Assembly (NCBI GenBank): GCA_965226375.1
Contig: CBDDCX010000006.1
Span: 576,001-640,000, forward strand
Direction: 5' to 3'
DNA from: Longimicrobiales bacterium
GTDB lineage: Bacteria > Gemmatimonadota > Gemmatimonadetes > Longimicrobiales > Gaopeijiaceae
Length of the DNA stretch: 64,000 nucleotides
In this document: positions 11,016 through 64,000 of the stretch, piece after piece
How positions within the stretch are numbered: position 1 is the stretch's first letter
Layout: each line of letters opens with the position of its first letter
Notes under the pieces: generated by a model
The model's input: only the letters and a program-made list of their open reading frames with translations
What the model was told of the DNA's origin: nothing
The model's database searches: none
Made by a program: the position numbers and the translations under genes

Positions 11016-11629
11016 CGATCCTCCCCCACCGCCGGCTCATTCCCGGCCTGACGCTGCAGCACACGGACATAGTTCACGATGTTCCAACGATCGAAGTGGC
11101 TGACCTGGTGGCCGTACGGCGGCATCAGGCCGCGACCCACTCGCATGATCCCGTATATGTAGCCGTCGCTATACCCTGCAACCACCGGGCCCGACAGGTT
11201 GTACGCGATCAAAAGCGGGTACTTCTCGATGATATTGGCCTGTGCACCCACCCCGGCGGGACCATGGCACACGGCGCACATGCGATTGAATAACACCTCA
11301 CCGCGCGCCAACGAAGCCTCGTCGGCCGCGACCGGATTCGGCAGCGTCTGCACCAGGGGCTGGAAAAGATCCGCCTGGGTGAAGGGAGGTGCGTTGAATC
11401 CCCTCTCGGGCTGTCCCGTGTTCAAACGGCCCGGTCCGGGAGTAATGTTGCCCGCAGCGAACGGCACGCTGTTCGGCGGGGGATCAAGCGTGTTCTCGTA
11501 GGGGTCGAACGACCGCGAGTCACGCATGTGGCGACCGAAGATGCCCGCCATGACGTTGTCGAGGGGCGTGCAGGCGCTCGACGTAATGAGCAGAGCAAGG
11601 ACGGCTCCGAAGCGCGCGTTACGAAGCAT
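11012..11629 (-). CDS. actE: Alternative complex III monoheme cytochrome c lipoprotein ActE
   Basis: Lipobox-like LLITSSAC; CAVCH; MPPYG; RWNIVNYVR. Confidence 0.9.
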   Translation of the reverse strand: MLRNARFGAVLALLITSSACTPLDNVMAGIFGRHMRDSRSFDPYENTLDPPPNSVPFAAGNITPGPGRLNTGQPERGFNAPPFTQADLFQPLVQTLPNPVAADEASLARGEVLFNRMCAVCHGPAGVGAQANIIEKYPLLIAYNLSGPVVAGYSDGYIYGIMRVGRGLMPPYGHQVSHFDRWNIVNYVRVLQRQAGNEPAVGEDR

Positions 11630-12149
11630 GAGCCACTCCCGCGGGATCTTCCCGCAATTCGACAGGATCCTGCCCCTGCAGAATGCCGCGCGCCTCATCC
11701 AGTCGGTCTGGAGGGGCCGTCACGTACACCCCGAAGCGGCCTGCACTGAACTCCGGATCGTAGACCACCATGGGTTTCAAGTACGGAAGACGACTGTTGA
11801 TGAAGAGACCGATCACCGTCGAGAGTACTCCAAACAAGACCATCATCTCGAACGCAATGATCACGTATGCCGGTATGGAAAGGATCGGCTTGCCGCCGGT
11901 GACGAGAGGCCAGTCCATGGAGGTGAATGACGTGAAGGCGAAGCCTCCAGCCGCTCCGCAGAGTCCCCCGGCGAGCGTCCAGACCCTAACGGGGCTCTGG
12001 TCATAGCCCAAGGCGGCCTCGATATGGTGATCCGGATAAGGCATGTAAGCCGTGATCTTCTTGAGCCCCGTGGCCCGCAGTTTCTCGATGGCGTTCACTG
12101 CCGAATCCACGTACTCGTACGACGCCAGGATCCCCGTCGTGGCGCTCAT
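11619..12149 (-). CDS. actD: Alternative complex III subunit ActD (DUF3341)
   Basis: MDWPLVTGGKPILSIPAYVIIAFEMMVLFG, YDPEFS. Confidence 0.9.
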   Translation of the reverse strand: MSATTGILASYEYVDSAVNAIEKLRATGLKKITAYMPYPDHHIEAALGYDQSPVRVWTLAGGLCGAAGGFAFTSFTSMDWPLVTGGKPILSIPAYVIIAFEMMVLFGVLSTVIGLFINSRLPYLKPMVVYDPEFSAGRFGVYVTAPPDRLDEARGILQGQDPVELREDPAGVAHAS

Positions 12150-13537
12150 CCCTCACCTCCTTCCCCACCGGCGTGGGCAAGCGCGGCTGAACGCATTGGC
12201 GTAGGCAGCACCTCTTTCAACTCTGCGATGGCTACCACTGGCAGCAACCGCGTAAAGAGCAGGAACCAGAAGCCGAACCAGGCAAAGCTCCCCACCATGA
12301 TCCCCATCTCTACCACCGAAGGCCGGTACAGGCCCCATGCGAAGGGCTCGTACTCGTGGTGTAGCGAGGTGACGATGATCACGTAGCGTTCGAACCACAT
12401 TCCGATGTTGACGAAAATCGAGATCGTGAACAGGGCGGGTATGGAGTACCTCACCCGCTTGAACCAGAGCATGATCGGGACCAGTCCGTTACAAACCAGC
12501 ATGGTCCAGCTGGCCCACCAGTAGGGACCGAAGAGTCTGGCCCAGAAGGCGGCCCGCTCCACTTCCTCACCGCTGTACCACGCCATGAAGAACTCGGACG
12601 CGTAGGCGTAGAACACGATCATCGACGTCAGCAAGCAGAGCTTGGCCATGGCGTCGTAGTGTTTGGTCGTGAGGTACGCCTCGAGGCCAAACACCTTCCG
12701 GAGAGGGACAGTCAGGGTGATCACCATGGCGACGCCGGAGAAAATAGCGCCGGCCACGAAGTAGGGAGCGAAGATGGTGGTGTGCCACCCAGGCACGATC
12801 GCCACTGCAAAGTCCCACGAAACCACTGAGTGGACGGACAGGACCAGCGGTGTCGCCAAGGCGGCCAGAAAGATGTACGCCTTGCCGAAATGGTGCCATT
12901 CGCGGTCGGTACCACGCCATCCCAAAGAAATGACCTTGTAGAGCTTCTTCCTGAAGCCCGTTGCCGCGTCTCGGGCGGCGGCCAGGTCGGGAATCGTCCC
13001 CAGGTAGAAGAACATCGCCGACACCGTGAAATACGTGGTAACGGCAAAGACATCCCATACCAGGGGTGAACGGAAGTTCGGCCACAGGAACCGGCTGTTC
13101 GGATACGGAATCAGCCAGTAGGCATGCCAGACGCGTCCTACGTGGATGAGCGGAAACAGCCCCGCGGTCATGACCGCGAACACCGTCATGGCCTCGGCTG
13201 CCCGGTATATCGACTGCCGCCAAGGCGCCCGGAACAGGAACAGGATGGCCGAGATCAGAGTGCCCGAGTGGGCGATACCCACCCAAAACACGAAAGTGGT
13301 GATGTAGACTCCCCAGCCCACGGGACTGGTGAGGCCGGTGACGCCAATGCCCTGCACTATCTGAATGCTCCAGGAGACCGCCGCCACACCAATCCCTGTC
13401 ACCGCTATCCCGAGGAGTAGCCACCAGCCGAGACCCGGCTTACCGAGCGATACGAGGATGTCGCGATTGACCTGATCGAGCTTCTGCAGATCCGGGTGGG
13501 GTACCGCGCCCCTAGGCTCGTTGGTCGCGGTAGCCAT
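12146..13537 (-). CDS. actC: Alternative complex III NrfD/PsrC-family subunit ActC
   Basis: FVFWVGIAHSGTLISAIL, HVGRVW, PNFRSPLVWDVFAV, VHSVVSWDFA, GMWFERY. Confidence 0.95.
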   Translation of the reverse strand: MATATNEPRGAVPHPDLQKLDQVNRDILVSLGKPGLGWWLLLGIAVTGIGVAAVSWSIQIVQGIGVTGLTSPVGWGVYITTFVFWVGIAHSGTLISAILFLFRAPWRQSIYRAAEAMTVFAVMTAGLFPLIHVGRVWHAYWLIPYPNSRFLWPNFRSPLVWDVFAVTTYFTVSAMFFYLGTIPDLAAARDAATGFRKKLYKVISLGWRGTDREWHHFGKAYIFLAALATPLVLSVHSVVSWDFAVAIVPGWHTTIFAPYFVAGAIFSGVAMVITLTVPLRKVFGLEAYLTTKHYDAMAKLCLLTSMIVFYAYASEFFMAWYSGEEVERAAFWARLFGPYWWASWTMLVCNGLVPIMLWFKRVRYSIPALFTISIFVNIGMWFERYVIIVTSLHHEYEPFAWGLYRPSVVEMGIMVGSFAWFGFWFLLFTRLLPVVAIAELKEVLPTPMRSAALAHAGGEGGEG

Positions 13538-16500
13538 CAATGCTCCCCCGATTCCACGTCGTGGAACGTCACTTTTTTCAAGTAACTCACCGCTGGTTGC
13601 GTATTGACGAGCTCGTCCAGCACTCGGTAGACCCTCTCACTCCGGACCGACTGGGCCACCCGGGAGCGGGTGTCTCGGATGTTGCCGAAGACGATGGCCT
13701 CCGCCGGACAGCTCTGCTGACAGGCCGGCACGATCTCGCCGTCCTGTATCGTGCTTCCCTCGACGGCGGCGCGGTCCTGAGCGCCACGGATCCGATGGAT
13801 GCAGAACGAGCATTTCTCCATGATCCCGTTCTCGCGCACCGTCACATCGGGGTTGAAAGCCCAGTTCATGGGTTCGGGAGCGTGCCCCAGGCCCTCACGT
13901 ACCGGTTCTTCGTCCGTGAACGTGTACCAGTTGTAGACCCGGACCTTGTAGGGACAGTTGTTCAGGCAGTACCGCGTACCCACGCAGCGATTGTAGACCT
14001 GCGTATTGATCCCGTCCGGTGTGTGATAGGTGGCGAAAACCGGGCAGACGGGCTCGCAGGGCGCGTTGCCGCAGTGCTGGCAGATCATGGGCATGAAGCG
14101 CACGTCGAGCGGGCCGGCATGGCTCGCGTCCACCGCCTCGTAGTAGCGCTCCAGGCGAATCCACCCCATGTCGCGACCCATCGTCACCTGGCTCTCTCCG
14201 ACCCAGGCCACATTGTTCTCCGACTGACAGGCGACAACACACGCGCTGCACCCCGTGCACTTGTCGAGGTCGATGGTCATGGCCCACCGCGGCGTCTCGG
14301 GATCCCCGTACTCGCCGTGCTGGGCGCCTTCGAGCGGGAAGTCCTCGGGGCGGCCCTCCGTCTCGACCGGCACGAAGCCTCCGACGCCCTGAAGCTCACT
14401 CAGGGGCCCATGCGCGTCTTCCTCGTCAGCGCCCTCGGCCTCGCCCGTCAGCCCGGCCAAAGCCACGGCGGGGGTGATGGGACGGTTGCTCTGGACGTCC
14501 GAACCCGCGATGGAGGCCAGCTTCCGACGCTCACCCGTGGGCGTCACAGTGACCTTGGTGGCGAAATGAACCAAACCGCCCGACAGTGCCTCGGATTCGG
14601 CCGGCAGCAGATCGAGGGGATTCACACCGTTTCCGTCCGAGAAACGTCCCGCACCGTCGTGTCCACCACCCATGGGCATGGCGACCACGTTCTCGCGGAT
14701 GCCCGGGTAGGTCCACACCGGCACCTCTACGGCGCCGTGGTCGGTCGACAGAACCACCAAGTCTCCGTTTCGCAGCCCCATCGATTCCGCCCGGTCCGGA
14801 TGCATCTCCACCCATGAATGCCACGCGATCTTGCTGACAGGATCCGGCAACTCGTGCAGCCAGGGCCTGTTGGAATTCAGGGCGCCGTCACCGAAGCGCG
14901 ACGACGGGTACACCATGAGGTGAAGATCGCCACCGCCATCGAAGTCGGGTGGGTCGAAGACCAACGCCCGATCCGGCTGGCGAAGTTGTTCCGACACGCC
15001 CGTTACATTCGCGCTGAGGTCCACCACACCGGTCTTGAGCGCCTCATGCCAAAACGTCTCGAAGTCGGTCGTACCGGTCGAGGCGGCTACCGTTTGCCAG
15101 CGCGAACGGAGTCGGTCGTAGAAGGTCTCAGATCCGAGGTCCTGTCCCATCCGGGACGCGACCGACAAGAGCACATCGCCGGCCTGTTTGGTATCGAAGT
15201 GGGGCACCGGCTGCATGGCGGGCTGCTGTAGGCCCCACAGGCCCGGCCGGACGGCGGAGTCACCCCAAGACTCCAGGAAGTGCCGGTCCGGGAGAATCAG
15301 GTCCGCCAGGGCGGTAGTCTCGTCCGGGGCCAACGCGAAGGAGACCTTGAACGGCACGCTCTCGAAGGCCTCACGGAGCCCTGAAGACGCGGGTACCGAG
15401 TAGATCGGATTGCTGGCATGGACCATCAGGGCTCCGACAGAGCCCTGCCCGATCAGCTGAATCACCCGCTCTACCCCACCATACCCGAATGCGGGAGCGT
15501 TGAGCTGGGGCGAGTGGTAGTGCAGGGTCCGACCCACATTCCCCGCCACCGAGTTCAGGACCGCCACCGCGAGGTTGGCAGCCGTGGCATTCCGGTGCTG
15601 TCCGGCAACGCCGGGACCGACGGCCAGGCTGGGTCCCTCTTCCGAAAAGCGAATGGCCAACTCGCGGATGCTCTCGGCAGAGATGCCGGTGGCGTCCGCC
15701 ACGTTCTCGGGGGTATAGGCGTTGACGATATCCCGGTAGGGGCCAGCTCCCGCGCCGGCGCCCGAGATCACGTTGGTCATGGCGAGAGCAACCAAGGCCT
15801 CGCTGCCCGGTTGGATCGGGAGCCACTCGTCGGCATTCTGCCCCGTTAGCGAAAGGCGTGACCCGACGAACACGAAGCGACCCTTGCCGCCCTGCGTGTC
15901 GACGCCGCTCATGCGTGCGAACCCTCGGGCATCGCGCACCGGCGAGACCCAACTCTCGAGGAAGTCGGCCCCGAACGAGACGAGCAGGCGGGCCTCCTCG
16001 ATGTCGTACCACGGGATCACGTTCCTCCCGAAGGCGATGCGGCCCGCCTCCCGGAGGGGCGCGTCGGCCAGGGGGTCGAAGCGGACCACACCTCCACCCG
16101 TGGACCCGGCGAACTCCTCGAAGAGCGTCATGAGCGACGGTCCGGTGAGGCCCGTCAGCGTGAGGTGCTGCCCGGCCGACCCAAGACCATCGGCCAGCCT
16201 CTGCTCGGCCTCGTCCCACGAGATGGGTTGCAGCTGACCGTTTTGCCGAACCATGGGCCCGGTGAAGCGGTCGGGGTTGTAGAGTCCCTGTATGCTCGAG
16301 TGTCCTCTCGCGCAAAGGGCTCCGCCCGAGACGGGGTGGTCGGGATTCCCCTCGACCTTCACGACTCGGCCCTCTCTGGTGCGGACCCAGATTCCGCAGC
16401 CCGCCTCACATTCGCCACACACCGAAGCGTACCAGGTGGCAACGCCGGGAGTGATCTCCTCTGGCGGCACCACGTACGGAATCAGGCGCTCGACACTCTC

Positions 16501-16584
16501 CGTCGAGCAGCCCACCATACCGGCCCCCGCTCCGCTGACGCTCAGAACCTTGAGGAACTCGCGTCTCTTCAATCCGTCACTCAT
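13537..16584 (-). CDS. actB: Alternative complex III ActB (molybdopterin-oxidoreductase-like domain fused to Fe-S domain), Tat lipoprotein
   Basis: KRREFLK Tat motif followed by VGC; N-terminal CGECEAGC...LCARG; C-terminal CTGCSACVVAC, CQHCGNAPCEPVCP, CVGTRYCLNNCP, CSFC...ACQQSCP. Confidence 0.93.
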   Translation of the reverse strand: MSDGLKRREFLKVLSVSGAGAGMVGCSTESVERLIPYVVPPEEITPGVATWYASVCGECEAGCGIWVRTREGRVVKVEGNPDHPVSGGALCARGHSSIQGLYNPDRFTGPMVRQNGQLQPISWDEAEQRLADGLGSAGQHLTLTGLTGPSLMTLFEEFAGSTGGGVVRFDPLADAPLREAGRIAFGRNVIPWYDIEEARLLVSFGADFLESWVSPVRDARGFARMSGVDTQGGKGRFVFVGSRLSLTGQNADEWLPIQPGSEALVALAMTNVISGAGAGAGPYRDIVNAYTPENVADATGISAESIRELAIRFSEEGPSLAVGPGVAGQHRNATAANLAVAVLNSVAGNVGRTLHYHSPQLNAPAFGYGGVERVIQLIGQGSVGALMVHASNPIYSVPASSGLREAFESVPFKVSFALAPDETTALADLILPDRHFLESWGDSAVRPGLWGLQQPAMQPVPHFDTKQAGDVLLSVASRMGQDLGSETFYDRLRSRWQTVAASTGTTDFETFWHEALKTGVVDLSANVTGVSEQLRQPDRALVFDPPDFDGGGDLHLMVYPSSRFGDGALNSNRPWLHELPDPVSKIAWHSWVEMHPDRAESMGLRNGDLVVLSTDHGAVEVPVWTYPGIRENVVAMPMGGGHDGAGRFSDGNGVNPLDLLPAESEALSGGLVHFATKVTVTPTGERRKLASIAGSDVQSNRPITPAVALAGLTGEAEGADEEDAHGPLSELQGVGGFVPVETEGRPEDFPLEGAQHGEYGDPETPRWAMTIDLDKCTGCSACVVACQSENNVAWVGESQVTMGRDMGWIRLERYYEAVDASHAGPLDVRFMPMICQHCGNAPCEPVCPVFATYHTPDGINTQVYNRCVGTRYCLNNCPYKVRVYNWYTFTDEEPVREGLGHAPEPMNWAFNPDVTVRENGIMEKCSFCIHRIRGAQDRAAVEGSTIQDGEIVPACQQSCPAEAIVFGNIRDTRSRVAQSVRSERVYRVLDELVNTQPAVSYLKKVTFHDVESGEH

Positions 16585-16600
16585 CGACTTGGTCCTGGCA

Positions 16601-17152
16601 TCAGTAGTGGCAAACGGAGCAGTCCCTCGAAACGCCGCGCTCGACGTGGCAGGTCACGCACCATCCCATGGCAAGCGGCTGATTGACCTCCTCTAGGACA
16701 CCCATCTCTTGCACCGGCCCATGGCATTCGGCGCAATCGACTTCAGCGGCGACATGCCTCATGTGCGGGAAGTGGACGTGATCGGCAACCTTATATATGC
16801 GAACCCATGGAATGGGCTCCTGGTTGGTCCAGTATTCGCGAACCTTCGCGATTTCAGCCTGCTGCCGCTCGTCGGTTCCACCGATGATCTGATGACACCC
16901 TATGCAGGTTCTGACGGGCGGAATCCCCGCGTCCACCGATCGTTCCGCCGAGAAGTGGCAATACTGGCAGTCGATCCGGTCTATTCCGGCATGAATGTCA
17001 TGAGGAAAAGCGATCGGCTGAACGACGTCGGCGGTCGCCCCGCTTGTCGCGTCAGACTCCGGCGCCGCACTGCTGTCCTGGGTCTGGACGAACGCCAAAG
17101 TACCCAGGGTTGCGAGCGCGACGATCGATGCAGCGATCCATCGCTTCGTCAT
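16601..17152 (-). CDS. actA: Alternative complex III pentaheme cytochrome c ActA
   Basis: Five CxxCH motifs (CQYCH, CIGCH, CAECH, CVTCH, CSVCH); QPIAFPHDIH; MGWC; ends CHY. Confidence 0.95.
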   Translation of the reverse strand: MTKRWIAASIVALATLGTLAFVQTQDSSAAPESDATSGATADVVQPIAFPHDIHAGIDRIDCQYCHFSAERSVDAGIPPVRTCIGCHQIIGGTDERQQAEIAKVREYWTNQEPIPWVRIYKVADHVHFPHMRHVAAEVDCAECHGPVQEMGVLEEVNQPLAMGWCVTCHVERGVSRDCSVCHY

Positions 17153-54134: not shown

Positions 54135-54380
54135 TTGAGCAATATTTCCGAGCGCCCCCTGGCCGGTCTCACGATCCGGATCGATCGAGACCTGTGCGTA
54201 GGATTCGGTGACTGTATCGATGCCGGCCCTGACGTGTTCGAGTTCGACGAAGAGAGCATTGCCGTCTTCAAGGAGGGCAACCCCGACATCGACCGAGAGG
54301 CGCTCCTAGATGCCTGTTCGTCGTGTCCGGTCGACGCTCTCACGGCCCTGGATGAGGAGGGGACCCAGCTCGTCCCGTAG
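54135..54380 (+). CDS. Single-cluster ferredoxin (likely [3Fe-4S])
   Basis: IDRDLCVGFGDC...ACSSCPVDAL; second Cys position of CxxCxxC is F. Confidence 0.85.
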   Translation: MSNISERPLAGLTIRIDRDLCVGFGDCIDAGPDVFEFDEESIAVFKEGNPDIDREALLDACSSCPVDALTALDEEGTQLVP

Positions 54381-54402
54381 CGGAGGACTACTGCCGAATC
54401 CG

Positions 54403-55302
54403 ATGCGCAAGATCAGAAGCTACCGAGAGGTCACCCACGAGACCGGGTCCCAGCTCCTCGAGCAGGTAGTCGAGCAACAGGAGCGACTCGCGGCGCGGCT
54501 CGCTCCCGTGGGATCGGTGGTGGCCGTGGCCAGCGGAAAAGGCGGTGTGGGCAAGAGCGCCATTACAGCGAATCTGGCCGTCGCTCTCGCCGAGCGCGGA
54601 TTGTCGGTCGGAGCCGCCGACGCGGATCTCAACGGGCCTTCTCTGGGCCGTATGCTGGGGGTGTCTGGCGCGCGCCTGGTCGATCGAGCGGAGGGAGTGG
54701 AGCCGGCCGTGAGCCCCACGGGAGTACGAGTCATGTCCATGGAGTTGCTCCAACAGGACGAGGACACGCCACTTCGGTGGCGAGAGCCGTCTACCGGAGG
54801 ATTCATTTGGCAGAGCACATTGGAGACCGGCGTGCTAAGAGAGTTTCTGGGTGACGTTGCGTGGGGCAACCTCGACGTTCTACTGGTCGACGTTCCCCCC
54901 GGAACGGACAAGATCGCCCGCCTCATGGAGTTGGTGCCGGATCTCGATCAGATGCTCCTCGTGACCACTCCGTCGGAGACCTCCCGCTTCGTCGTCTCGA
55001 AATCGGTGAGGATGGCGCGCGAGGCGGGCGTCCCGATCGTGGCCCTGGTGGCGAACATGACGGAGCACGTCTGCCCTTCCTGCGGGCACACGTCCCAGCT
55101 GTTCCACGGCGACGGGGCCCGGCGTCTGGCCGAGGAGTCGGGCGTACCGCTCTGGGGCGACATCCCCTTCGACGCGCGGCTCGGCGCTTCCACCGACCTG
55201 GGATCGCCGCTGGTGCAGGAAGACCCGGAAGCGGCCTCCAGCCGCGCGCTCTCGGCTCTAGCCGACCGAGTCGCCGCCGCCATCGAGGGGAATACGGAAT
55301 GA
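54403..55302 (+). CDS. Mrp/ApbC/NBP35 Fe-S carrier ATPase
   Basis: ASGKGGVGKS, DADLNGPS, DVPPGT, NM...CPSC. Confidence 0.9.
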   Translation: MRKIRSYREVTHETGSQLLEQVVEQQERLAARLAPVGSVVAVASGKGGVGKSAITANLAVALAERGLSVGAADADLNGPSLGRMLGVSGARLVDRAEGVEPAVSPTGVRVMSMELLQQDEDTPLRWREPSTGGFIWQSTLETGVLREFLGDVAWGNLDVLLVDVPPGTDKIARLMELVPDLDQMLLVTTPSETSRFVVSKSVRMAREAGVPIVALVANMTEHVCPSCGHTSQLFHGDGARRLAEESGVPLWGDIPFDARLGASTDLGSPLVQEDPEAASSRALSALADRVAAAIEGNTE

Positions 55303-55772
55303 AGTTTCTCTGCCTCGAGTGCGACGACGTGATGGACTTCGCCGAGCGGCAGCTTCCCGGCGACGGAACGCTGACCGCCGTGTTCAGATGCGGCTCCTGC
55401 GGACGAGAGGTCGCAATGCTCACGAACCCCATGGAGACGCAGCTCGTGTCGAGCTTGGGAGTGAAGATCGGGGGTCGCGAGGTACCCTCGCAGCCCCTCG
55501 AGATGGTCCGCACCTCTCTCGAGGGGGGCAGAGAAGAGGCCTTCGACATCTCGGGGGACATTCCGAGACAGCCGCCCGAGCAGCCCACACCCACTGGGCA
55601 GCCGGTCGGATGGAGCCCTGAGGCCACGGAGCGCTTAGCCAAGGTCCCCAGCTTTGTGCGAGGCATGGTGAAGCGTATCTACGTCGACTGGGCCAAGGAA
55701 AACGGGGTGGCCGAGATGACGCCAGATGTCATGGACCGGGCCCGGACCGATCTGGGCTTGGAGGATATGTAG
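55299..55772 (+). CDS. Cys4 (CxxC...CxxC) protein with C-terminal PCP_red-like domain
   Basis: MKFLCLEC...FRCGSC...LTNPMETQLV; WSPEATERLAKVPSFVRGMVKRIYVDWAKE; ATGA overlap with Mrp gene. Confidence 0.8.
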   Translation: MKFLCLECDDVMDFAERQLPGDGTLTAVFRCGSCGREVAMLTNPMETQLVSSLGVKIGGREVPSQPLEMVRTSLEGGREEAFDISGDIPRQPPEQPTPTGQPVGWSPEATERLAKVPSFVRGMVKRIYVDWAKENGVAEMTPDVMDRARTDLGLEDM

Positions 55773-55869
55773 GCTTGTTCCCGGCCAGGGTGGACGGTAC
55801 ATACTCGGACCTGATTGCCGTCTTTAATATGGGCGATTCCGGTAGGGAGTAGGTGTCCGTTCGGGTTTG

Positions 55870-55899
55870 TTGACAGGTCTCAGAAGGGCCGGGTATACT
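55870..55899 (+). promoter_or_regulatory. Near-consensus sigma70 promoter upstream of the usp-rSAM-cydA-like operon
   Basis: TTGACA-N18-TATACT. Confidence 0.65.
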
Positions 55900-56226
55900 G
55901 GCCCCCGGGTACGACCCCCTCGCAGCCTCGGAGGGGCAGGACAAGGGCTCGCGAGACACTCGGTACAAGGGCATAATACGAGGTTCACGAGGACTGAAAT
56001 CCTCGTCTTCGGGGCTCGGCGTAGCCGGCCCCCTATATGTATTAATTGTTGCAGCGATAATCGTTGCCGGGCGCCTGACGTCTAGCTGGAGAAGTGCAAG
56101 CTCGATCGATGATCCGTCTTCCCTTCTTGGGGGAAGAGCGGACCGCTCCGAAGGACTCGGAGAGAGGAGGCTCTGTGCTGCCGGAAGACGAAGGTGCTAG
56201 GCTAATCGACTATGCCCGAGGTGTTT

Positions 56227-58353
56227 ATGTACCGTGAAGTCTTCGTACCGGTCGACAATTCCCCACATTCGCACTGGGCCGTCGATCGGGCCATTGAAGT
56301 CTGTGCCCGTTCGGACGGACAGATCACCGGCAACCACGTCTATGCGGCACGTCTACACGACGTTCGCTTTAGGCAACTCGAAACCGGTCTTCCCGCTCAA
56401 TTCCAGAGTGCCGCAGAGATCAAACGGCAACGGAAGATTCACGACAAGCTGATCGAGAAGGGTCTTCAGCTCATCTCCGATTCGTTCCTCGACCAGACGT
56501 CCAAGGCATGTGACGCGGCTGGGGTCACCTTGACCAGGCAACTGCTCGAGGGCATCCACTACGAGGAGGTCATCCGCGAGGCCAACGCCGGCCATGGACG
56601 GCTGCCCAGCCTCATCGGCTTCGACCCGAACATCGCCGATAAGTACGACGGGGGTGACACGGTCCGGAGCGACGTGGCCATCGACGACGATGGACGCATC
56701 ATCGCCGAGGACGAGGAGCAAGACGAAAAACTCGCCGGCTCGAGCGGTCGCAAATACGACCTGATGGTCATCGGAGCCCACGGCATCGGCAAGCAGCCGT
56801 ACTCCCAACTCGGCGGCATGGTCTCCCGCGTAATCCGGGGGGTCGAAAAGGATACGCTGATCGTCCGGGACGACAAGGCGTTGGCGAACGGCGATTGGGT
56901 TATTTGTGTCGACGGCTCCTCGTACTCCTACAAGGCGATGCGGCTGGCTCTCGAGATGGCGAGGGACTTCGGGGCAAAGCTCCATGTATGCTCGGCCTTC
57001 GACGTGGAATACCACCACGCCGTGTTCGGCAACATCAAGGACATCCTCTCGGTCCAGGCCTCGAAAGTGTTCAAGTTCGAGGAGCAGGAAGAGCTCCACA
57101 ACAACATCATCGACAAGGGTCTGCTGAAGCTCGCCCAGGCGAACCTCAAGCGAGCTCAGGTGATGGCTGACCAGTTCCCTGACGTAGAGGTCGAGACACA
57201 GATCCTGATCGGCAAGCCATTTCAGTGCATTCTTCAGTGGATTGAAGAACTCGAACCGAGCCTCGTGGTCATCGCACGTCACGGCGGACACCGGGTCGAG
57301 GGCACTGACATGGGCTCACAAGCGGACAACCTTTGTCGACTCGCCCACAGCAACATCCTTCTGGTCGGGACCTTGGACGTCCGTCCCGACGACATCCCTT
57401 GGATCGAGGAGGACGGTGAGACGGGCCTCGAATGGTCGCCCGACGCCGAGGTCCGCATCCTGCGCGTGCCTTCCTTTGCTCTCGGGATTGCCCGTAAGGC
57501 GGTAGAGGAATACGTGCTGGACAACTACGGAAGTGGGGCCAACGGCACGTACCGAGAGGATCCGCTCCCGTCGACAAACGGTTCCGCCACCAGCGGGATC
57601 GCCGCATCGAATGGTGCCGCCTCGCCCGACGCAGTGGAGCAGGAGTGCACGGCAGTACCTCCCCTAGGGGCCGGCGGCCTACCCATGGTTACCAGCCCAC
57701 GGCTGGACGAGGCCATTCAAAAGCTCCTTCCCACCCACATGCAGTTGATTATGGGAATCGGCACGGCGGAGGAACTCGCCCTGGCCGAAGTGAAGGCCGA
57801 CGAGGCCATGAAACGCACCGTTGTGGAGGGCCTGGACGCCGACCCGATTCCGGATGTGCCCATGGTCTCGGGCACGTGCCCCCACTCGGGACACATACTG
57901 AACCGCGAACGAACGGCCCAGGATCCAGTCCAATGGACCCAAGAGGCCTTCGAGCGACTCAAGGCCGTTCCGCTCATCGCCAGACCTTTGGCTCGGAACA
58001 CAGTGGAGCGCTTTGCCCGTGAGCAGGACATCTGGCGCGTGACGACACCGGTCATGGACGAGAACAAGCAGGCCATGATCGAGGCGGACGAGTTCGATAT
58101 GGACACCATGCTGGTCATGTTCCGTGAGCTCCAGACCAAACAGATCAGGGCGGAGGCCGAGGGAGTCGACGGGCTCACACCCGAAATGCGGAAGTTTATC
58201 GAAGAGGCCAAGGCCAGCGGCGTCACTCGCTGCCCCATCCGCGACGTGGCGGAAGCGGCCGACCAGTGCCCGGTCGACATAAAGACCGTTTCGCCCGAAG
58301 ACGCCAAGGCGGCCGTCGAGCAGTTCATGAACAAAGAGGCCAACAAGGCGTGA
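56227..58353 (+). CDS. Tandem Usp-domain protein with two PCP_red-like modules and three C-terminal Cys-Pro motifs
   Basis: VFVPVDNSPHS...VIGAHGIG; ICVDGSSYS...ARHGGH; WSPDAEVRILRVPSF and WTQEAFERLKAVPLIARP; TCPH, RCPI, QCPV; GAGGTG RBS. Confidence 0.82.
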   Translation: MYREVFVPVDNSPHSHWAVDRAIEVCARSDGQITGNHVYAARLHDVRFRQLETGLPAQFQSAAEIKRQRKIHDKLIEKGLQLISDSFLDQTSKACDAAGVTLTRQLLEGIHYEEVIREANAGHGRLPSLIGFDPNIADKYDGGDTVRSDVAIDDDGRIIAEDEEQDEKLAGSSGRKYDLMVIGAHGIGKQPYSQLGGMVSRVIRGVEKDTLIVRDDKALANGDWVICVDGSSYSYKAMRLALEMARDFGAKLHVCSAFDVEYHHAVFGNIKDILSVQASKVFKFEEQEELHNNIIDKGLLKLAQANLKRAQVMADQFPDVEVETQILIGKPFQCILQWIEELEPSLVVIARHGGHRVEGTDMGSQADNLCRLAHSNILLVGTLDVRPDDIPWIEEDGETGLEWSPDAEVRILRVPSFALGIARKAVEEYVLDNYGSGANGTYREDPLPSTNGSATSGIAASNGAASPDAVEQECTAVPPLGAGGLPMVTSPRLDEAIQKLLPTHMQLIMGIGTAEELALAEVKADEAMKRTVVEGLDADPIPDVPMVSGTCPHSGHILNRERTAQDPVQWTQEAFERLKAVPLIARPLARNTVERFAREQDIWRVTTPVMDENKQAMIEADEFDMDTMLVMFRELQTKQIRAEAEGVDGLTPEMRKFIEEAKASGVTRCPIRDVAEAADQCPVDIKTVSPEDAKAAVEQFMNKEANKA

Positions 58354-59729
58354 TCCGCAGCGTCGACCGCACCTCCTCCTCTGCTGCGACGCTGTCGCCG
58401 CCGGCTCCGGCCGAACGGCGAGACGCCCCAGGTCAGCGCTCCGGCAACGGCTACGTGCCGCACGTCGTCGCGTGGAACCTGACCAAACGGTGCAACCTCG
58501 AGTGCGCACACTGCTACATATCCGCCGGATCGTGGCATCTGGCCTCAGAGGAGCTCTCCACCGAGGAGTGCTTCCGTGTCCTCGACGAGATCCTCGAGGT
58601 CAACCCCCACCCGATGCTCATCCTGACGGGCGGAGAGCCGCTGGTACGGGATGATCTGGAGGCCATCGCCGAGAGGGCGTCCTCTCGAGGAGCCACGGTA
58701 GTCGTCGGAACCAACGGCACCAGGCTGACCGGAGAGCGCATCGACTCGTTGATGGCGGCGGGGATCAAGGGTGTTGCCGTAAGCATCGACTCGCTTCGAT
58801 CCGAATACCATGATCGCTTCCGGCATGGCGGCGGTGCCCTCACCGACACGATGGCCGCCGTCGAACGATGTGCCGAACGCAAGCTGGACTTCGTCATCCA
58901 GACAACCGTAACTACGGGAAATCGGCATGAGATTGCCGATTTGGCGAATTGGTCGGCCACGGCCGGAGCTGTTTCCTTTAATGTGTATTTCGTGGTCCCG
59001 ACGGGTCGGGCCGAGCTGATGGGCGGTATGACGCCTGCCGAGAACGATGAGGTCCTCCAGGAATTGGTCGCGCTCGAGCAGACGTACCGGGGGCGAATGA
59101 TGATTCGCTCCAAGTGCCAACCGCAGCTCATGCGCCACGTCATCGACGGCGATCCGGACTCGCCTTTGCTCAACTACGAGACGCGCTGCCCCTGCGGCGT
59201 GCACTACGTGCGAATCACTCCCGAGGGCAAGGTCACGCCCTGCCCCTATATGCCCGTTGTCGCCGGCGACCTGATGAAGGACAGCTTCCGAACCATCTGG
59301 CAGACCTCGGAGGTCTTCAGTGATCTTCGGTCGGGCCAGCTCTCGGGACGCTGTGGGCGCTGCGAATACCGCGAGGTATGCGGTGGCTGTAGAGCCCGGG
59401 CTTACGCGGAGACGGGCGATTTTCTGGGCCCGGACGACTCGTGCGTCTACGAGCCCACGGGTGAGGTACCCCTGATTGCTCGGGTACAGGCCGTAGCCTA
59501 CGGTCAGGCGGCCGCGTCCGAGATGGCTTGGTCCCCAGAGGCCCGGGCTCGTCTGGACAAGGTTCCGAGTTTCGTGAGGGGGGTCGTGACGGCCCGCGTC
59601 GAGAAATTCGCCCTTGAAAGGGGCTATTCCAGCGTAGATATCGAGGTCACGGAAGAAGTGCGTAAGAGCCTTCCCGTAGATTTCTCGAAAAAGCTTCCGT
59701 TCTTTCTCGGTAGAGGAGGTACGGCATGA
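58350..59729 (+). CDS. Radical SAM/SPASM protein, AhbD/NirJ-like, with C-terminal PCP_red-like module
   Basis: WNLTKRCNLECAHC, LTGGEPL, PCPY, CGRCEYREVCGGCRARA; WSPEARARLDKVPSFVRGVV; GTGA overlap with usp. Confidence 0.85.
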   Translation: MIRSVDRTSSSAATLSPPAPAERRDAPGQRSGNGYVPHVVAWNLTKRCNLECAHCYISAGSWHLASEELSTEECFRVLDEILEVNPHPMLILTGGEPLVRDDLEAIAERASSRGATVVVGTNGTRLTGERIDSLMAAGIKGVAVSIDSLRSEYHDRFRHGGGALTDTMAAVERCAERKLDFVIQTTVTTGNRHEIADLANWSATAGAVSFNVYFVVPTGRAELMGGMTPAENDEVLQELVALEQTYRGRMMIRSKCQPQLMRHVIDGDPDSPLLNYETRCPCGVHYVRITPEGKVTPCPYMPVVAGDLMKDSFRTIWQTSEVFSDLRSGQLSGRCGRCEYREVCGGCRARAYAETGDFLGPDDSCVYEPTGEVPLIARVQAVAYGQAAASEMAWSPEARARLDKVPSFVRGVVTARVEKFALERGYSSVDIEVTEEVRKSLPVDFSKKLPFFLGRGGTA

Positions 59730-59810
59730 ACCGGCGCGCTAGAAGGCTGTTGACAAGAAAGGAAACGTGATGAGTCGAGGGAGCCGACGACTCGGCGTGG
59801 CAGTGCGGCA

Positions 59811-61571
59811 TTGAAGTTCCTGGGGGCCTTGGGCCTGGTGGGCCTGGTCTTCCAGGTCTTCCCAGACGCCGCGTGGGCGCAGGACGTTGCGGTACGGCAG
59901 TACGGCGACTTTCCCATGGTGGGGAGTCGGGTCGCGGTGTGGGTGGCCGCGCAGGTGCACCTCCTCTTCGCAGCGTTCGTTCTCGGGGTACCGATGTTTG
60001 CGGTCGTAGCAGAGGCCATCGGCATCTTCGCGGGTCACGAGAAGTACGATAAGCTCGCCAAGGAATTCACCCGACTCCTCCTGGTGGCCTACTCAGCCAC
60101 GGCGATCTGGGGAGCGATCCTATCCTTCCTGCTCGTCACCCTGTATCCGAGACTTTGGATCTATCTGGCGGAGATCTTCGAATTCTCCATGTGGATCTAT
60201 GTAGGCCTCTTCTTTCTCGAGTCGTTCACGCTGTACCTCTACTACTACGGCTGGGATCGCTGGAAGAAGGGGCGTGCCAAGCTGGCTCACTGGGGTCTGG
60301 GCATCATGCTCAACGTGTGGGGCACCACCGTCATGTTCATCGCCAACTCCTGGTTGACGTACATGATGAGCCCGCCCGCCGATGTCGGCCCCGACACGTC
60401 ACCGGCCATGGTCCAATTCTGGAGCGCCTTCGCCAACGCGACCTGGATGCCGATCAACATCCACCGGATTATCGCGAACGTGGTCTTCGGTGGTGCTATC
60501 GTGGGCGCCTACGCCGCCTACCGCTTCCTAATGGCAAAGACGGATGAGGAACGCGCCCACTACGACTGGATGGGCTACGTCGGCAACCTGATCGCCATCG
60601 GTGCGCTCATCGTCCTTCCGTTCGCCGGTTACTACCTGGGCCGCGAGGTCTACGAGTTCAACCAGCAAATGGGCATCACCATGATGGGCGGGTTCATGAG
60701 CTGGCTTTGGATTATCCAGGCCTTCCTCATCGGTGTGTTGTTCCTGACCGGCAACTACTACCTCTGGGTGGGAATGGGCCGGATTCCCGGGGCCGAACGT
60801 TTCACTCCCTACACGAAATACATGCTGGTGGTACTCGTGATCGGGGTGATGGTATGGGCCACGCCGCACACCATGATCGCCAACAGAGAAGAAATCGCCG
60901 CGATGGGAGGCACCAACCACCCCTTCCTGGGTGTCCTCGGGGTCATGAGCGCCAAGAACACGGCTGTGAACATCATGATCCTGACCACGTTCCTGTCCTT
61001 CCTGCTCTATCGTCGCGCAAACATTCGGCCGACGGTCAGTTGGGCGAGGACCGGAACCCTGATTCAGGCGGCTCTGTTCATCATCGCCGCGGGCATCGTG
61101 ATCTTCTACGGGATCTACGGATACTTCGTCAGCGCAATCGTCCGGATTGGATTCTCGGTCTATCAGGTGCTGGCGGTGCTCTTCACGATCTTCGCGGTCG
61201 TCGGGATCGATATTGTTCTCGCGCGGGGCGCGGAGTCCAGGGGCGAGATCCGCTGGGGACAGATGCCTCCGAGGTCTCAGTACGCCCTCTTCATTCTCGC
61301 CGTCACGTTCACCTGGCTCATGGGCCTCATGGGCTTCGCTCGCAGTGGAATCCGACAGCACTGGCACGTCTGGGAGGTCATGCGTGACACCAGCGAGTGG
61401 GCGGCGACGCCGGCCCTGGGCTACGCGTCCGTGGTGATCTCGGTGTGTGTGCTGATCTTCCTCACGTTGGTTGCCTTCATCTTCTGGCTCGGCGGACTCG
61501 CGGAGAAGCCTGTGATATCGGGCGCCGGTGCCTCGTCCTCGCCTGAGCTCGCTCCTGCGGCAGGCGATTGA
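59811..61571 (+). CDS. Cytochrome bd-like oxidase subunit I (CydA superfamily, divergent, OR-N-like)
   Basis: VHLLFAAFVLG (His19-like), FFLES, ANSWLTYMMSP, IHRIIAN (His186-like), IRQHWHV in place of GRQPW; no Q-loop motif; 5' end uncertain. Confidence 0.82.
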   Translation: MKFLGALGLVGLVFQVFPDAAWAQDVAVRQYGDFPMVGSRVAVWVAAQVHLLFAAFVLGVPMFAVVAEAIGIFAGHEKYDKLAKEFTRLLLVAYSATAIWGAILSFLLVTLYPRLWIYLAEIFEFSMWIYVGLFFLESFTLYLYYYGWDRWKKGRAKLAHWGLGIMLNVWGTTVMFIANSWLTYMMSPPADVGPDTSPAMVQFWSAFANATWMPINIHRIIANVVFGGAIVGAYAAYRFLMAKTDEERAHYDWMGYVGNLIAIGALIVLPFAGYYLGREVYEFNQQMGITMMGGFMSWLWIIQAFLIGVLFLTGNYYLWVGMGRIPGAERFTPYTKYMLVVLVIGVMVWATPHTMIANREEIAAMGGTNHPFLGVLGVMSAKNTAVNIMILTTFLSFLLYRRANIRPTVSWARTGTLIQAALFIIAAGIVIFYGIYGYFVSAIVRIGFSVYQVLAVLFTIFAVVGIDIVLARGAESRGEIRWGQMPPRSQYALFILAVTFTWLMGLMGFARSGIRQHWHVWEVMRDTSEWAATPALGYASVVISVCVLIFLTLVAFIFWLGGLAEKPVISGAGASSSPELAPAAGD

Positions 61572-61632
61572 ATGAAAGGCCCGGCTGTCTAGACATGAAT
61601 ACGACTTCTGACTCGAGAGACTGAGACGCGCG

Positions 61633-62430
61633 ATGCTTGCAGAGAATCTGAGGATCTTGGCGGTCGTTCTCGGGACCCTTGGGATCTTCACCCTGGTGGC
61701 GAACTCCATTCCCCAAGTCCAGTCCGAGGTGCCACAGGAGCTGACCTTTGGAGCCAACGTCACGGCGGCCGAATTGGTCTCGTCGGGAGGGACCCTTTAC
61801 AACGGGGCGGGCGGTTGTGTGGCCTGCCACGGGCTGGGGACTCGCGCCCCCAACCTCTTGACGGACGCAGGCGGCACGGGCTCCATCGGGCAACGTTGTG
61901 GCGACCGCGTGAGTGGGCAGGACTGCAAGACCTACTTGTACAACTCCATGACGGACCCGGCCGGCTTCCTGGTCGAAGGCTATAATCCGATCATGCCCGA
62001 CATGCGCCGCTCCCTTTCGGACGCACAAATCTGGTCGGTCGTCGCCTTCCTGCAGGATCAGGGTGGCGAAGTAACGGTCACCGGAGCTGACCTCACCGCA
62101 GAGGACGGAGGGGCGGAGCCGGCCGCTGCTGCTGCGCCCACGGCCGCTGCTCCGGCGACTGCATCCCTCGATCCCGTCGAAATCATGCGGGCCAATACCT
62201 GCCTGGTATGTCATCAGTTCAACGGTGAAGGCGCGCCCATGGGACCGCCCTTCGACGGGATGGGGGGACGGGTAGACGCGGACTACATCCGCCAATCGAT
62301 CCTGGACCCGTCGGCGGGCGCATCGGCGGGCTTCGAAGCGTTCATCGGCGTCATGCCGGCGATCTTCGGTAGCCAGCTTACGGCCGCGCAGCTCGAGGCC
62401 GTGGTTCAGTTCCTGGCCAGCCAACAGTAA
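61633..62430 (+). CDS. Membrane-anchored diheme cytochrome c
   Basis: N-terminal TM segment; CVACH...IMP; CLVCH...VMP. Confidence 0.88.
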   Translation: MLAENLRILAVVLGTLGIFTLVANSIPQVQSEVPQELTFGANVTAAELVSSGGTLYNGAGGCVACHGLGTRAPNLLTDAGGTGSIGQRCGDRVSGQDCKTYLYNSMTDPAGFLVEGYNPIMPDMRRSLSDAQIWSVVAFLQDQGGEVTVTGADLTAEDGGAEPAAAAAPTAAAPATASLDPVEIMRANTCLVCHQFNGEGAPMGPPFDGMGGRVDADYIRQSILDPSAGASAGFEAFIGVMPAIFGSQLTAAQLEAVVQFLASQQ

Positions 62431-62447
62431 GGGGAGGCGGAACGCGA

Positions 62448-63245
62448 ATGGGCAAACACTTCAAGCATCCCTTCGGCCAAGCGGTTCTGGTCTTGGCGCT
62501 GTCGTACATCGTGCTGGACTATGGCATCGTATATCTCCCACCCCTGGTCGGGATCGCCAGCGCCCCCATCCCGAACTCCGTCCTCTTCCAGTTCATGCTG
62601 ACGGCCGCCGTCGGCGTATTGCTCTGGGTGAGTGACAACGAGGAGCGTTGGACGGAGTTCAAGGCCCCGATACACCGGACAATGGTGGATCCGCAGAAGA
62701 AAACGGTACGGGGACTCTTCATGGTGGCCATCCCCCTTCTGGTGGCTTTCGGCACGTTCAACCGGGTCCGGCCGTCCGTGGCCGCGCCCATCAGCCTCAG
62801 GTCGGTCCATCCGGCTCCTCCCGGCCGGATCGACTTTCAGGGCACGGACATGGAGCTTGCCGGACTCGAGAACCCTTTGAGGTCGACGGGCTCTATGGAG
62901 GACCACTATGAAGAGGGCAAGAGGATCTACTATGAGAACTGCCTCGCTTGCCACGGCGACGGGCTGAACGGGCAGGGCCACTACGCGGCCGCGTTCACCC
63001 CGGCCCCCGCCAACTTCGAAGACATCGGCACCATCGCCCAGCTGACGGAAAGTTTCGTCTTCTGGAGGATCGCCAAGGGCGGCCCCGGCCTCCCGAATGA
63101 AGGCGCCCCCTGGAATTCGGCGATGCCGGCCTGGGAAGATTTTCTGACCGAGGACGAGATCTGGTCGGTGATCATCTTTTTGTATGAGCAGACGGGGCAT
63201 GAGCCTAGGACTTGGGAGGAAGCTGAAGAGGGGGAGGAGCACTGA
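62448..63245 (+). CDS. Membrane-bound monoheme cytochrome c (about 3 TM segments plus cyt c)
   Basis: Hydrophobic N-half; CLACHG, FWRIAKGGPGLP, SAMPAW. Confidence 0.85.
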   Translation: MGKHFKHPFGQAVLVLALSYIVLDYGIVYLPPLVGIASAPIPNSVLFQFMLTAAVGVLLWVSDNEERWTEFKAPIHRTMVDPQKKTVRGLFMVAIPLLVAFGTFNRVRPSVAAPISLRSVHPAPPGRIDFQGTDMELAGLENPLRSTGSMEDHYEEGKRIYYENCLACHGDGLNGQGHYAAAFTPAPANFEDIGTIAQLTESFVFWRIAKGGPGLPNEGAPWNSAMPAWEDFLTEDEIWSVIIFLYEQTGHEPRTWEEAEEGEEH

Positions 63246-63307
63246 TGCGGGGCTTCGCGAAGGACATGGCAAGGAGCGTTTGTGTCGGATCCTCTTGCTT
63301 TGTGGGT

Positions 63308-63388
63308 AGGGGCCTTCGCGGGTTTCCCTCTCCACTCAAGCAATCTTCGATTGAACTTCGTTCCGAGGGAAACCTCGCGGCGGCCCCT
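63308..63388. repeat. Imperfect long inverted repeat (REP/MITE-like)
   Basis: AGGGGCCTTCGCGGGTTTCCCTC ... GAGGGAAACCTCGCGGCGGCCCCT with inner CAATC-TTC-GATTG hairpin. Confidence 0.6.
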
Positions 63389-63400
63389 GGAGCACGGCGG

Positions 63401-64000
63401 ATGACGGATCCGCTGAACATGCGGATCACCAAGGTGGTCGCGGGGGCATTCGCTCTCATCCTGGTTTTCTGGCTTGGGGCGGGAGGGTTGGAGGGACAGG
63501 AGGGCGGCGACCTCGGACAGGTCACTTATGAACAGTGGTGTGCGGGTTGCCACGGGTTGGACGGGACGGGGACGGGGGATGGGGCTTCGATCATGTTGCC
63601 TCGGCCTCGGGATTTCAGTCAGGCGCTGTACCAGATCCGGACTACGGCCAGTGGGGAGCTTCCGACGGACGATGACATTCTGAACGTTATCGATGTGGGA
63701 ATGCCGGGGACGACGATGCCGGGGTGGGAAGACCTGTTGTCGCGGGATGAGCGCGAGGCGCTGGTTCAATACCTCAAGACGTTTTCGCGGTTTTTCTCGC
63801 CCGACGAGGTGCCCGAGGCTCTCGACTTCGGCAGGCCGACCAGGGTGTCGGAGGAAGTGCTCGTGGAGGGAAGGGCCCAATACGACGCGATCGAGTGCTG
63901 GAAGTGTCATGGCGACCAGGGGCGCGGTGAGGGACAGTCCTCGCCCACGCTGGGTGACGACAACGGCTTCCCGGTCCGGGCGGCGGACCTGACCGAGAAC
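63401..64000 (+). CDS. Exported cytochrome c with at least 2 hemes; 3' end runs off the window
   Basis: Absent from the ORF track. Manual translation: signal peptide, CAGCHG...PRPRDF...GMPGTTMPGW...CWKCHG; frame is open back to ATG 63245. Confidence 0.88.
   Translation, partial: MTDPLNMRITKVVAGAFALILVFWLGAGGLEGQEGGDLGQVTYEQWCAGCHGLDGTGTGDGASIMLPRPRDFSQALYQIRTTASGELPTDDDILNVIDVGMPGTTMPGWEDLLSRDEREALVQYLKTFSRFFSPDEVPEALDFGRPTRVSEEVLVEGRAQYDAIECWKCHGDQGRGEGQSSPTLGDDNGFPVRAADLTEN

Follow-up and report, generated by a model that had tools for sequence, protein, structure and literature searches.

We analysed a 64,000-nt stretch of DNA, hereafter the window, from a Longimicrobiales bacterium of the phylum Gemmatimonadota (assembly GCA_965226375.1, contig CBDDCX010000006.1, forward-strand positions 576,001 to 640,000), whose genome is 4.2 Mb in size and 90% complete. 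The subject is a cluster at 54135-64000 of the window that encodes a CydA-like protein, five putative helper proteins and three c-type cytochromes. An earlier reading of the sequence (the original prediction) had described nine co-oriented genes, several of them translationally coupled, and open reading frame (ORF), Pfam and family-model checks found all nine with the domains stated beforehand. Stop and start codons overlap at three junctions: Mrp/Cys4-PCP_red (ATGA), Usp/radical S-adenosylmethionine (SAM) enzyme (GTGA) and the last two cytochromes (TGATG).

All nine genes lie on the forward strand. The first (54135..54380) starts with TTG and encodes a single-cluster ferredoxin of the Fer4_13/Fer4_15 type (Pfam E 2e-10). 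It is followed by an Mrp/ApbC/NBP35 P-loop iron-sulfur carrier (54403..55302; PF10609, E 7e-71, with the MrpORP and ApbC models below cut-off), a protein joining a Cys4 motif (CxxC-x22-CxxC) to a PCP_red domain (55299..55772; PF08369, E 6e-12), a tandem Usp protein with two PCP_red domains (Usp2-PCP_red2, 56227..58353, from Pfam), and an AhbD-like radical SAM/SPASM enzyme with a C-terminal PCP_red domain (58350..59729, from Pfam and family models). Downstream of these helper genes lies the CydA-like gene (59811..61571; Pfam E 6e-21), which was examined by alignments, a structure model and a tree. The cytochrome genes encode a membrane-anchored dihaem cytochrome c with two CxxCH motifs and conserved Met ligands M121 and M241 (61633..62430), a monohaem cytochrome c with three predicted membrane helices, identified by sequence and Pfam (62448..63245), and a dihaem cytochrome c fused to an EB_dh (alt-NxrC) domain (63245..64999, past the window end).

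We extended the contig rightwards and continued the numbering beyond the window. The alt-NxrC gene is directly followed by a cupredoxin lipoprotein gene (65038-65889) and then by Cox2, Cox1, Cox3 and Cox4 (65915-69394). This cupredoxin and aa3 oxidase of the same unit lie beyond what the original prediction had covered. Its statement that the window holds no cydB was borne out on the extended contig, where none was found to the right of the window, and PF02322 (CydB) was detected in 0/5 genomes (the host and four single-contig relatives; control 9/14). A cydB just beyond the window was therefore rejected. The Cox1 protein matches PF00115 (E 1e-146), and the CoxB model scored above its cut-off. 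Cox1 contains GHPEVY, which we take to be the A1-type motif, and Cox2 carries the CuA ligands (H176, C211, C215, H219 and M222, kept in 62/62 aligned homologues), as in A1-type haem-copper oxidases. Copper-type ligands of the cupredoxin (H152, C189, H192, M195) were likewise kept in 62/62, and a comparison of the cupredoxin with solved structures gave no match below E 0.001. Past Cox4, locus L002 (6455-7575 and 11342-12262) encodes two membrane products without a Pfam match, a peptide of 52 aa and a protein of 321 aa, which recur widely among related loci. A CtaG-like gene, recognised by eye, lies there on the opposite strand.

A 440-bp gap 5' of the Usp gene contains TTGACA (55870-75) and TATACT (55894-99), a putative near-consensus sigma-70 promoter on the forward strand (TTGACA-N18-TATACT, 55870..55899). 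A like promoter was found 5' of Usp in 32/61 related loci, in none of them in each of 20 shuffles, and in 0/79 control regions. Since the gap holds a putative promoter, the nine genes are probably not a single transcript, and the recurrence of this element suggests that the genes for Usp, radical SAM enzyme, bd-like module and aa3 oxidase are probably transcribed together. An upstream-region scan of related loci showed no enrichment of FNR sites over background. CRP- and Rex-like matches upstream of Usp were in weak excess (Rex 15/62 at three mismatches vs 1-4 in shuffles), which may stem from the TTGACA element.

Class and electron path of the CydA-like protein

The FastTree analysis covered 74 proteins including 14 canonical CydA, with no OR-C reference and with three long branches. 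All 14 canonical CydA formed one side of a branch with support of 100. The window's protein fell outside them, among proteins named Nitrospinae, Manganitrophaceae, Nitrospirota and Chloroflexota, in agreement with the OR-N placement of the original prediction. On its sequence, the CydA-like protein is an OR-N (bd-like) protein and not a canonical quinol oxidase. The single gene, the retained Glu107 and the gene context fit OR-N2, and we infer this subclass over OR-N1.

Alignment with E. coli CydA revealed that His19, Glu107, His126 and His186 are kept as H50, E137, H160 and H218, with H50 present in 79/79 aligned homologues. Glu99 is replaced by Tyr130, which occurs in 80/80 close homologues. 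At the quinol site, Lys252 and Glu257 correspond to Met287 and Tyr316, and the Lys and Glu appear only in the two quinol oxidase (qOR) rows of the alignment. Met393 is absent, and Glu445 corresponds to Leu506 or Ser512 depending on register, with Glu in neither position. Two of the four canonical haem ligands (Glu445, Met393) are therefore missing, and Y130, H370, M504, M507, R511 and H519 are new conserved ligand candidates. The CydA-like subunit has no CxxCH motif. The features of qOR members (CydB, Q-loop residues, Met393 and Glu445) were thus all lacking.

OR-N proteins are defined by loss of the quinol site, and both OR-N1 and OR-N2 are described with 14 helices (Murali, Gennis, Hemp; 10.1101/2021.01.16.426971). 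The AlphaFold2 model of residues 23-571 (147 sequences; predicted local distance difference test, pLDDT, 92) has 13 long helices, and an N-terminal hydrophobic stretch adds to these, giving about 14. Fold comparison matched it to CydA (Z 32-34), CydB (23-25), ActF (21.5-23) and the polysulfide reductase anchor (13.8). The protein shares its fold with canonical CydA at a root-mean-square deviation of ~3.5 A over ~350 residues, and the first four to five helices align. In contrast to canonical CydAB, it has extra helices and lacks CydB, the Q-loop residues, Glu99, Met393 and Glu445, besides being separated in the tree.

CydA-like matches were found in 80/151 Gemmatimonadota genomes (53%), and 43 of these are of OR-N type. 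The same 53% is reported as the cytochrome bd share of this phylum (PMC9426454). A canonical-type CydA match accompanied only 8/43 OR-N carriers, and none was shown in the remaining 35/43. Plasmids yielded no OR-N genes, only weak canonical matches, and viral contigs searched with one Chloroflexota query yielded none.

The core of the cluster (CydA-like protein, two cytochromes c and alt-NxrC) is the published TO_1/bd-like_3 module. TO_1 of Ca. Manganitrophus is described with the same four-gene core (10.1101/2021.11.15.468770), and the bd-like_3 protein of Nitrospira moscoviensis with two cytochromes c and alt_NxrC_2 has the same composition (PMC6606698). A cluster common to Nitrospina, Nitrospira and Kuenenia, cupredoxins included, has also been reported (PMC3578206). 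The counterparts and the present module alike lack CydB and the quinol residues, have 13-14 helices, keep His19 and His186, and are accompanied by a monohaem and a dihaem cytochrome c, a dihaem alt-NxrC and an adjoining cupredoxin. The present module differs in its Gemmatimonadota host, in its co-transcription, as predicted above, with an A1-type aa3 oxidase, and in the five-gene helper block in front, which goes unmentioned where the cited sources describe the counterparts. The positions that we take to be haem-b ligands of alt-NxrC are not conserved in the cluster's alt-NxrC domain.

The function of OR-N proteins is given as unconfirmed, with no member assayed (PMC10839748), and that of bd-like proteins likewise (PMC12342949). 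The core has thus been described before, whereas its designation as an oxidase is hypothetical; of the original prediction, the bd-like class held up and oxygen reduction did not go beyond a proposal. Reduction of oxygen by the module is uncertain, with His19 and Glu107 kept and Glu99 and Glu445 lost. A separate question is whether the CydA-like module would instead be a quinone-linked or electron-routing complex working with the cupredoxin and the aa3 oxidase. In N. moscoviensis, reverse electron flow was proposed for the bd-like_3 module, and the oxidase role was given to a different paralogue (PMC6606698); for the cluster conserved in anammox bacteria, a role like that of alternative complex III (ACIII) was suggested (PMC3578206). 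The missing Glu99 and Glu445 and the fold match to ActF point the same way. So does the order in 16/16 loci of a second, divergent clade (see below; including L106 510-6760 and L138 346-6659), where ActA, ActB and a monohaem lipoprotein cytochrome lead directly into the CydA-like gene with no ActC/D/F between.

Against such a routing role, the closest fold match is CydA and not ActF, His19 and Glu107 are kept, and the quinol residues Lys252 and Glu257 are not. Moreover, no complex III is missing. The window itself contains a complete-looking ACIII operon in ActA-F order (9708..17152, reverse strand), 37 kb upstream of the cluster, in which ActD matches PF11821 (E 4e-42, 11655-12134) and the flanking Act ORFs were labelled by order, size and haem motifs. 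ActD was found in 144/151 Gemmatimonadota genomes, including 43/43 OR-N carriers, vs a reported ACIII share of <10% for which annotation failure was suspected (PMC9426454). The idea that the OR-N module makes up for the lack of a complex III in Gemmatimonadota was therefore rejected. Replacement of ActC/D/F by the bd-like protein in the second clade was weakened by locus L159, where the cupredoxin-Cox operon, on the opposite strand, has an ActF-like gene in front of it, as fits a split ACIII. We regard the routing role as deserving attention, though somewhat improbable on balance.

Quinol oxidation is covered by ACIII, which is likely the quinol-oxidising electron source for the cluster. In the simplest wiring, ACIII would take electrons from quinol and hand them to the cupredoxin and the three c-type cytochromes. 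Beyond these carriers, the path would split into two branches under one promoter, one being the bd-like module and the other the aa3 oxidase. Cytochrome b matches occurred in 76/151 genomes, both OR-N carriers and non-carriers. An ETF (electron transfer flavoprotein):quinone oxidoreductase-like gene, recognised by eye at 46169-47857 on the reverse strand, would be a further entry to the quinone pool near the cluster.

Co-occurrence of the helper genes with OR-N

Of 584 genome loci, we took the best 80, which were all from Gemmatimonadota, and counted neighbouring genes only where the flank was long enough. The helpers were present almost without exception: radical SAM enzyme in 76/77, Usp in 61/61, Cys4-PCP_red in 54/54, Mrp in 53/53 and ferredoxin in 52/53. 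The downstream genes were equally constant (dihaem cytochrome c 71/71, monohaem cytochrome c 70/70, alt-NxrC 64/64, cupredoxin 61/62, Cox2 62/62, Cox1 57/57).

In one sample of 151 Gemmatimonadota genomes, a CydA-like orthologue of OR-N type, taken at >=72% identity, was found in 43. Orthologues of Usp, the radical SAM enzyme and Cys4-PCP_red were found in 43/43 of these carriers (one Usp orthologue, in G116, being a contig-edge fragment) and in 1/108 other genomes. The single exception (G048), in which no OR-N gene was found, has divergent helpers of the second clade on a 9.6-kb contig (C4, locus L087); transfer and mis-binning are candidate readings. OR-N carriers and non-carriers are mixed within families f1, f4 and f5 and genera g17 and g58. 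The Cox2 orthologue was present in 42/43 carriers (in one as two pieces; the carrier without it ends at a contig edge). Two genomes have this aa3 oxidase and lack the OR-N module, the cupredoxin and the helpers, which indicates that the helpers follow OR-N and not aa3.

Of the three outcomes that the original prediction had named as counting against it, two were checked, a grouping with quinol oxidases accompanied by a cydB and a lack of co-occurrence of the accessory genes. Neither was observed.

The second Usp clade comprises 80 metagenome loci (L096-L175) whose Usp is ~35% identical to that of the window. It is probably acidobacterial, and two of the listed names are. The gene order there differs from that of the window and runs ActA, ActB, cytochrome, CydA-like, three cytochromes, Usp, an extra gene, Mrp, Cys4-PCP_red and radical SAM enzyme. 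Among loci with enough flank, alt-NxrC lay upstream of Usp in 52/52 and CydA-like in 22/22. This clade is more independent evidence for the tie between helpers and OR-N than the Gemmatimonadota counts. At locus L011, the radical SAM enzyme belongs to this second clade, yet its gene still adjoins a 77%-identical CydA-like gene. The extra gene, of 280-300 aa and acetyltransferase-like by eye, is conserved 3' of Usp in 53 loci; the window's cluster showed no such gene.

Leads beyond these groups are consistent with a wider distribution. Some Atlas clusters of Usp and of the radical SAM fusion are commonest in Nitrospinota. N. moscoviensis has a "modular" Usp gene of 2106 nt (NITMOv2_0498) and, next after it, a radical SAM gene of 1383 nt (NITMOv2_0497); they are expressed 9-fold and 3-fold over the median and lie far from the bd-like genes (PMC6606698, Table 1). 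By size and order these two fit the Usp/radical SAM pair. Taken together, the gene counts argue that the helper block is tied to the OR-N protein and inherited with it as a strongly conserved unit. We found no description of the block in the literature searched, which left out most subscription papers, and the Murali supplement could mention the genes.

The helper proteins and the cofactor

The radical SAM enzyme carries a CX3CX2C motif (C20/24/27) and eight SPASM cysteines (C228/252/270/307/310/316/319/337), all invariant in 77 aligned sequences. The spacing C228-x23-C-x17-C-x36-C-x2-C-x5-C-x2-C-x17-C fits the full AhbD motif, CX20-33CX17CX36-37CX2CX5CX2CX17-35C (Fix et al., PMC10452713). Three [4Fe-4S] clusters are predicted for it. 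Its best models were NirJ2 (TIGR04055, 283 bits), AhbD (TIGR04545, 274) and TIGR04053 (257), all under cut-off, and the NirJ model TIGR04051 gave 175 of 515 bits, short of a NirJ assignment. TIGR04053-type proteins lack four of the eight motif cysteines. The full motif was found in a plasmid AhbD/NirJ2-type protein beside AhbC- and AhbAB-like genes, and in a 33-36% identical relative without a PCP_red tail in eight genomes of family f10. PCP_red-bearing radical SAM enzymes form one clade (support 99).

Some SPASM enzymes are maturases of proteins and peptides, and in sequence comparison the best-matching solved relatives were SkfB and PqqE, so the radical SAM enzyme could be a maturase that modifies the OR-N protein by a residue cross-link or a metal site. 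Tyr130, which replaces the proton-channel Glu99 throughout the close homologues, would be in keeping with this. However, the three best models are haem enzymes or their relatives, and peptide maturase models gave <=130 bits. We consider a maturase role improbable.

The enzyme resembles AhbD (ChdA)/NirJ2 in both cysteine motifs, in its best family matches and in the availability of coprohaem in the host. It differs by the extra PCP_red domain, by its fixed partners Usp-PCP_red and Cys4-PCP_red, and by a host that lacks AhbA/B and usually has ChdC. HemE, HemH and HemY were found in 5/5 carriers tested, and coprohaem is therefore available in the hosts. AhbA/B (PF17805 over cut-off) were found in 0/5 of these carriers (control 3/14), and no cytochrome cd1 NirS was found in the five, only short weak PF02239 matches (25-32 bits) in 3/5. 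A sirohaem (Ahb) or haem d1 pathway was therefore rejected. ChdC was present in 38/43 OR-N carriers and 25/108 other genomes. The ChdC of the host genome has a YPMAK (Tyr-Met-Lys) sequence, presumably the ChdC motif, and adjoins a ctaB-like gene. Haem b can therefore be made without the radical SAM enzyme, and a gap-filling role in haem b synthesis was rejected as a general explanation.

A general low-oxygen back-up for ChdC, tied to the oxidases by shared regulation alone, would agree with the role of AhbD described in coproporphyrin-pathway bacteria without other Ahb genes, where it is an oxygen-independent alternative to ChdC (PMC13564367). In family f4, the operon (L084 16370-20000, L085 16788-20000) runs on into ctaB, chdC and hemE/hemH-like genes, as such a back-up might predict; the f4 chdC product has a C-terminal Rieske-like Cys/His domain. 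However, the helpers are absent from 107/108 genomes without OR-N, among them 25 that have ChdC and two that have this aa3 oxidase. A general back-up should also occur outside the OR-N carriers. It also leaves the Usp partner and the shared PCP_red domains unexplained, and we hold it to be unlikely.

In the ferredoxin, Cys21, 27 and 64 were present in 57/57 aligned homologues and Cys61 in 54/57, and it is likely the electron donor to the radical SAM enzyme. The four cysteines of the Cys4 protein are invariant in 60-61 homologues. The host genome has another Mrp-like gene (39% identical) away from the cluster, on contig C8. In the AlphaFold2 model of Usp residues 1-440 (pLDDT 82), there are two Usp domains with one helical insert apiece, and the insert residues His44, 72, 263 and 291 are conserved across both clades. 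Glycine motifs that we take to be of the nucleotide-binding type are also kept. The protein is likely a nucleotide-binding chaperone, and the modelled His inserts may bind haem. A search of solved structures with its sequence returned only ordinary Usp proteins (E 1e-10 to 1e-8), and tandem Usp proteins of the Rv2623 type differ by lacking long His-bearing helical inserts. The PCP_red domains match PF08369 of BchB/ChlB above curated cut-offs; here, in contrast, four copies occur on three non-photosynthetic proteins, and their presence on three neighbours suggests a docking tag.

We propose that the five helpers form a dedicated kit that finishes coprohaem, likely to haem b, and loads it into the OR-N protein, with a probability of about 0.5. 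The AhbD-like enzyme would decarboxylate coprohaem independently of oxygen, Mrp would load its three [4Fe-4S] clusters, and the ferredoxin and the Cys4 protein would handle its electrons. The Usp protein would bind nucleotide and carry haem on its His-bearing inserts, and the four PCP_red domains would dock the partners to one another.

Several observations weigh against this proposal. Since ChdC does the same step, there seems little need for a further route to plain haem b. The radical SAM enzyme reaches about half of the 500-bit cut-offs of NirJ2 and AhbD, the eight-Cys motif also occurs in non-haem SPASM enzymes (PMC10452713), and the plasmid AhbD/NirJ2-type protein is only 35% identical to it, with a grouping support of 56. 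The 43/43 co-occurrence does not represent 43 independent events, because the genes of the block move together and kin are not independent. In the second clade, Mrp was found in just 14/27, Cys4-PCP_red in 9/22 and the radical SAM enzyme in 8/20 loci within the fetched flank. Furthermore, the host genome has a second OR-N module (contig C4, locus L083 4938-11191, reverse strand; a cupredoxin, a 51% CydA-like protein and three cytochromes) with no helpers adjoining. Like modules without adjoining helpers occur in G056, G082 and G123, and in two of these the module has two cupredoxin genes. At the main locus, each of the four genomes does carry the helpers.

The original prediction had assigned the five genes to a pathway that builds a non-standard haem site. 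The dedicated pathway agrees with their inheritance with OR-N. As the product, ordinary haem b is at least as likely as a non-standard haem, because the AhbD cysteine motif is exact. The kit may nevertheless make a non-standard tetrapyrrole that serves the OR-N active site, such as a coprohaem that is partly decarboxylated or modified in some other way. ChdC is already present, yet genomes with OR-N retain the kit and those without OR-N almost never have it. The canonical ligands Glu445 and Met393 are lost while the six new candidates are conserved. The putative promoter looks like a housekeeping sigma-70 one with no FNR enrichment, and the radical SAM enzymes form their own clade. On the other hand, the motif spacing is exactly that of AhbD and no other product is indicated, and a bd-family enzyme with only b haems is reported as active (10.1101/2021.01.16.426971), so an unusual haem is not required in this fold. 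We therefore regard a non-standard tetrapyrrole as a doubtful, though reasoned, alternative to the finishing and loading of haem b.

In Nitrospira, Nitrospina and manganese oxidisers, OR-N proteins have been proposed as the endpoints of respiration. What is known here is the OR-N core, unassayed, and an ordinary aa3 oxidase; what is new is the helper block, apparently undescribed. It gives a concrete gene list for co-expression and one enzyme to assay. For annotation, more than half of the Gemmatimonadota CydA-like matches (43 of 80) belong to the OR-N type. The hosts are of heterotroph type and hold the module in one operon, so its function is separable from nitrite oxidation. It is conceivable, if speculative, that the OR-N cofactor lies outside known pathways, and that the Usp/PCP_red/radical SAM block is the pathway of its biosynthesis and insertion, shared by Gemmatimonadota, Acidobacteriota, Nitrospinota and probably Nitrospira. 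If so, haem chemistry would gain a new branch, and the block would be what has been missing for laboratory production of the long-sought respiratory enzyme of nitrite oxidisers.

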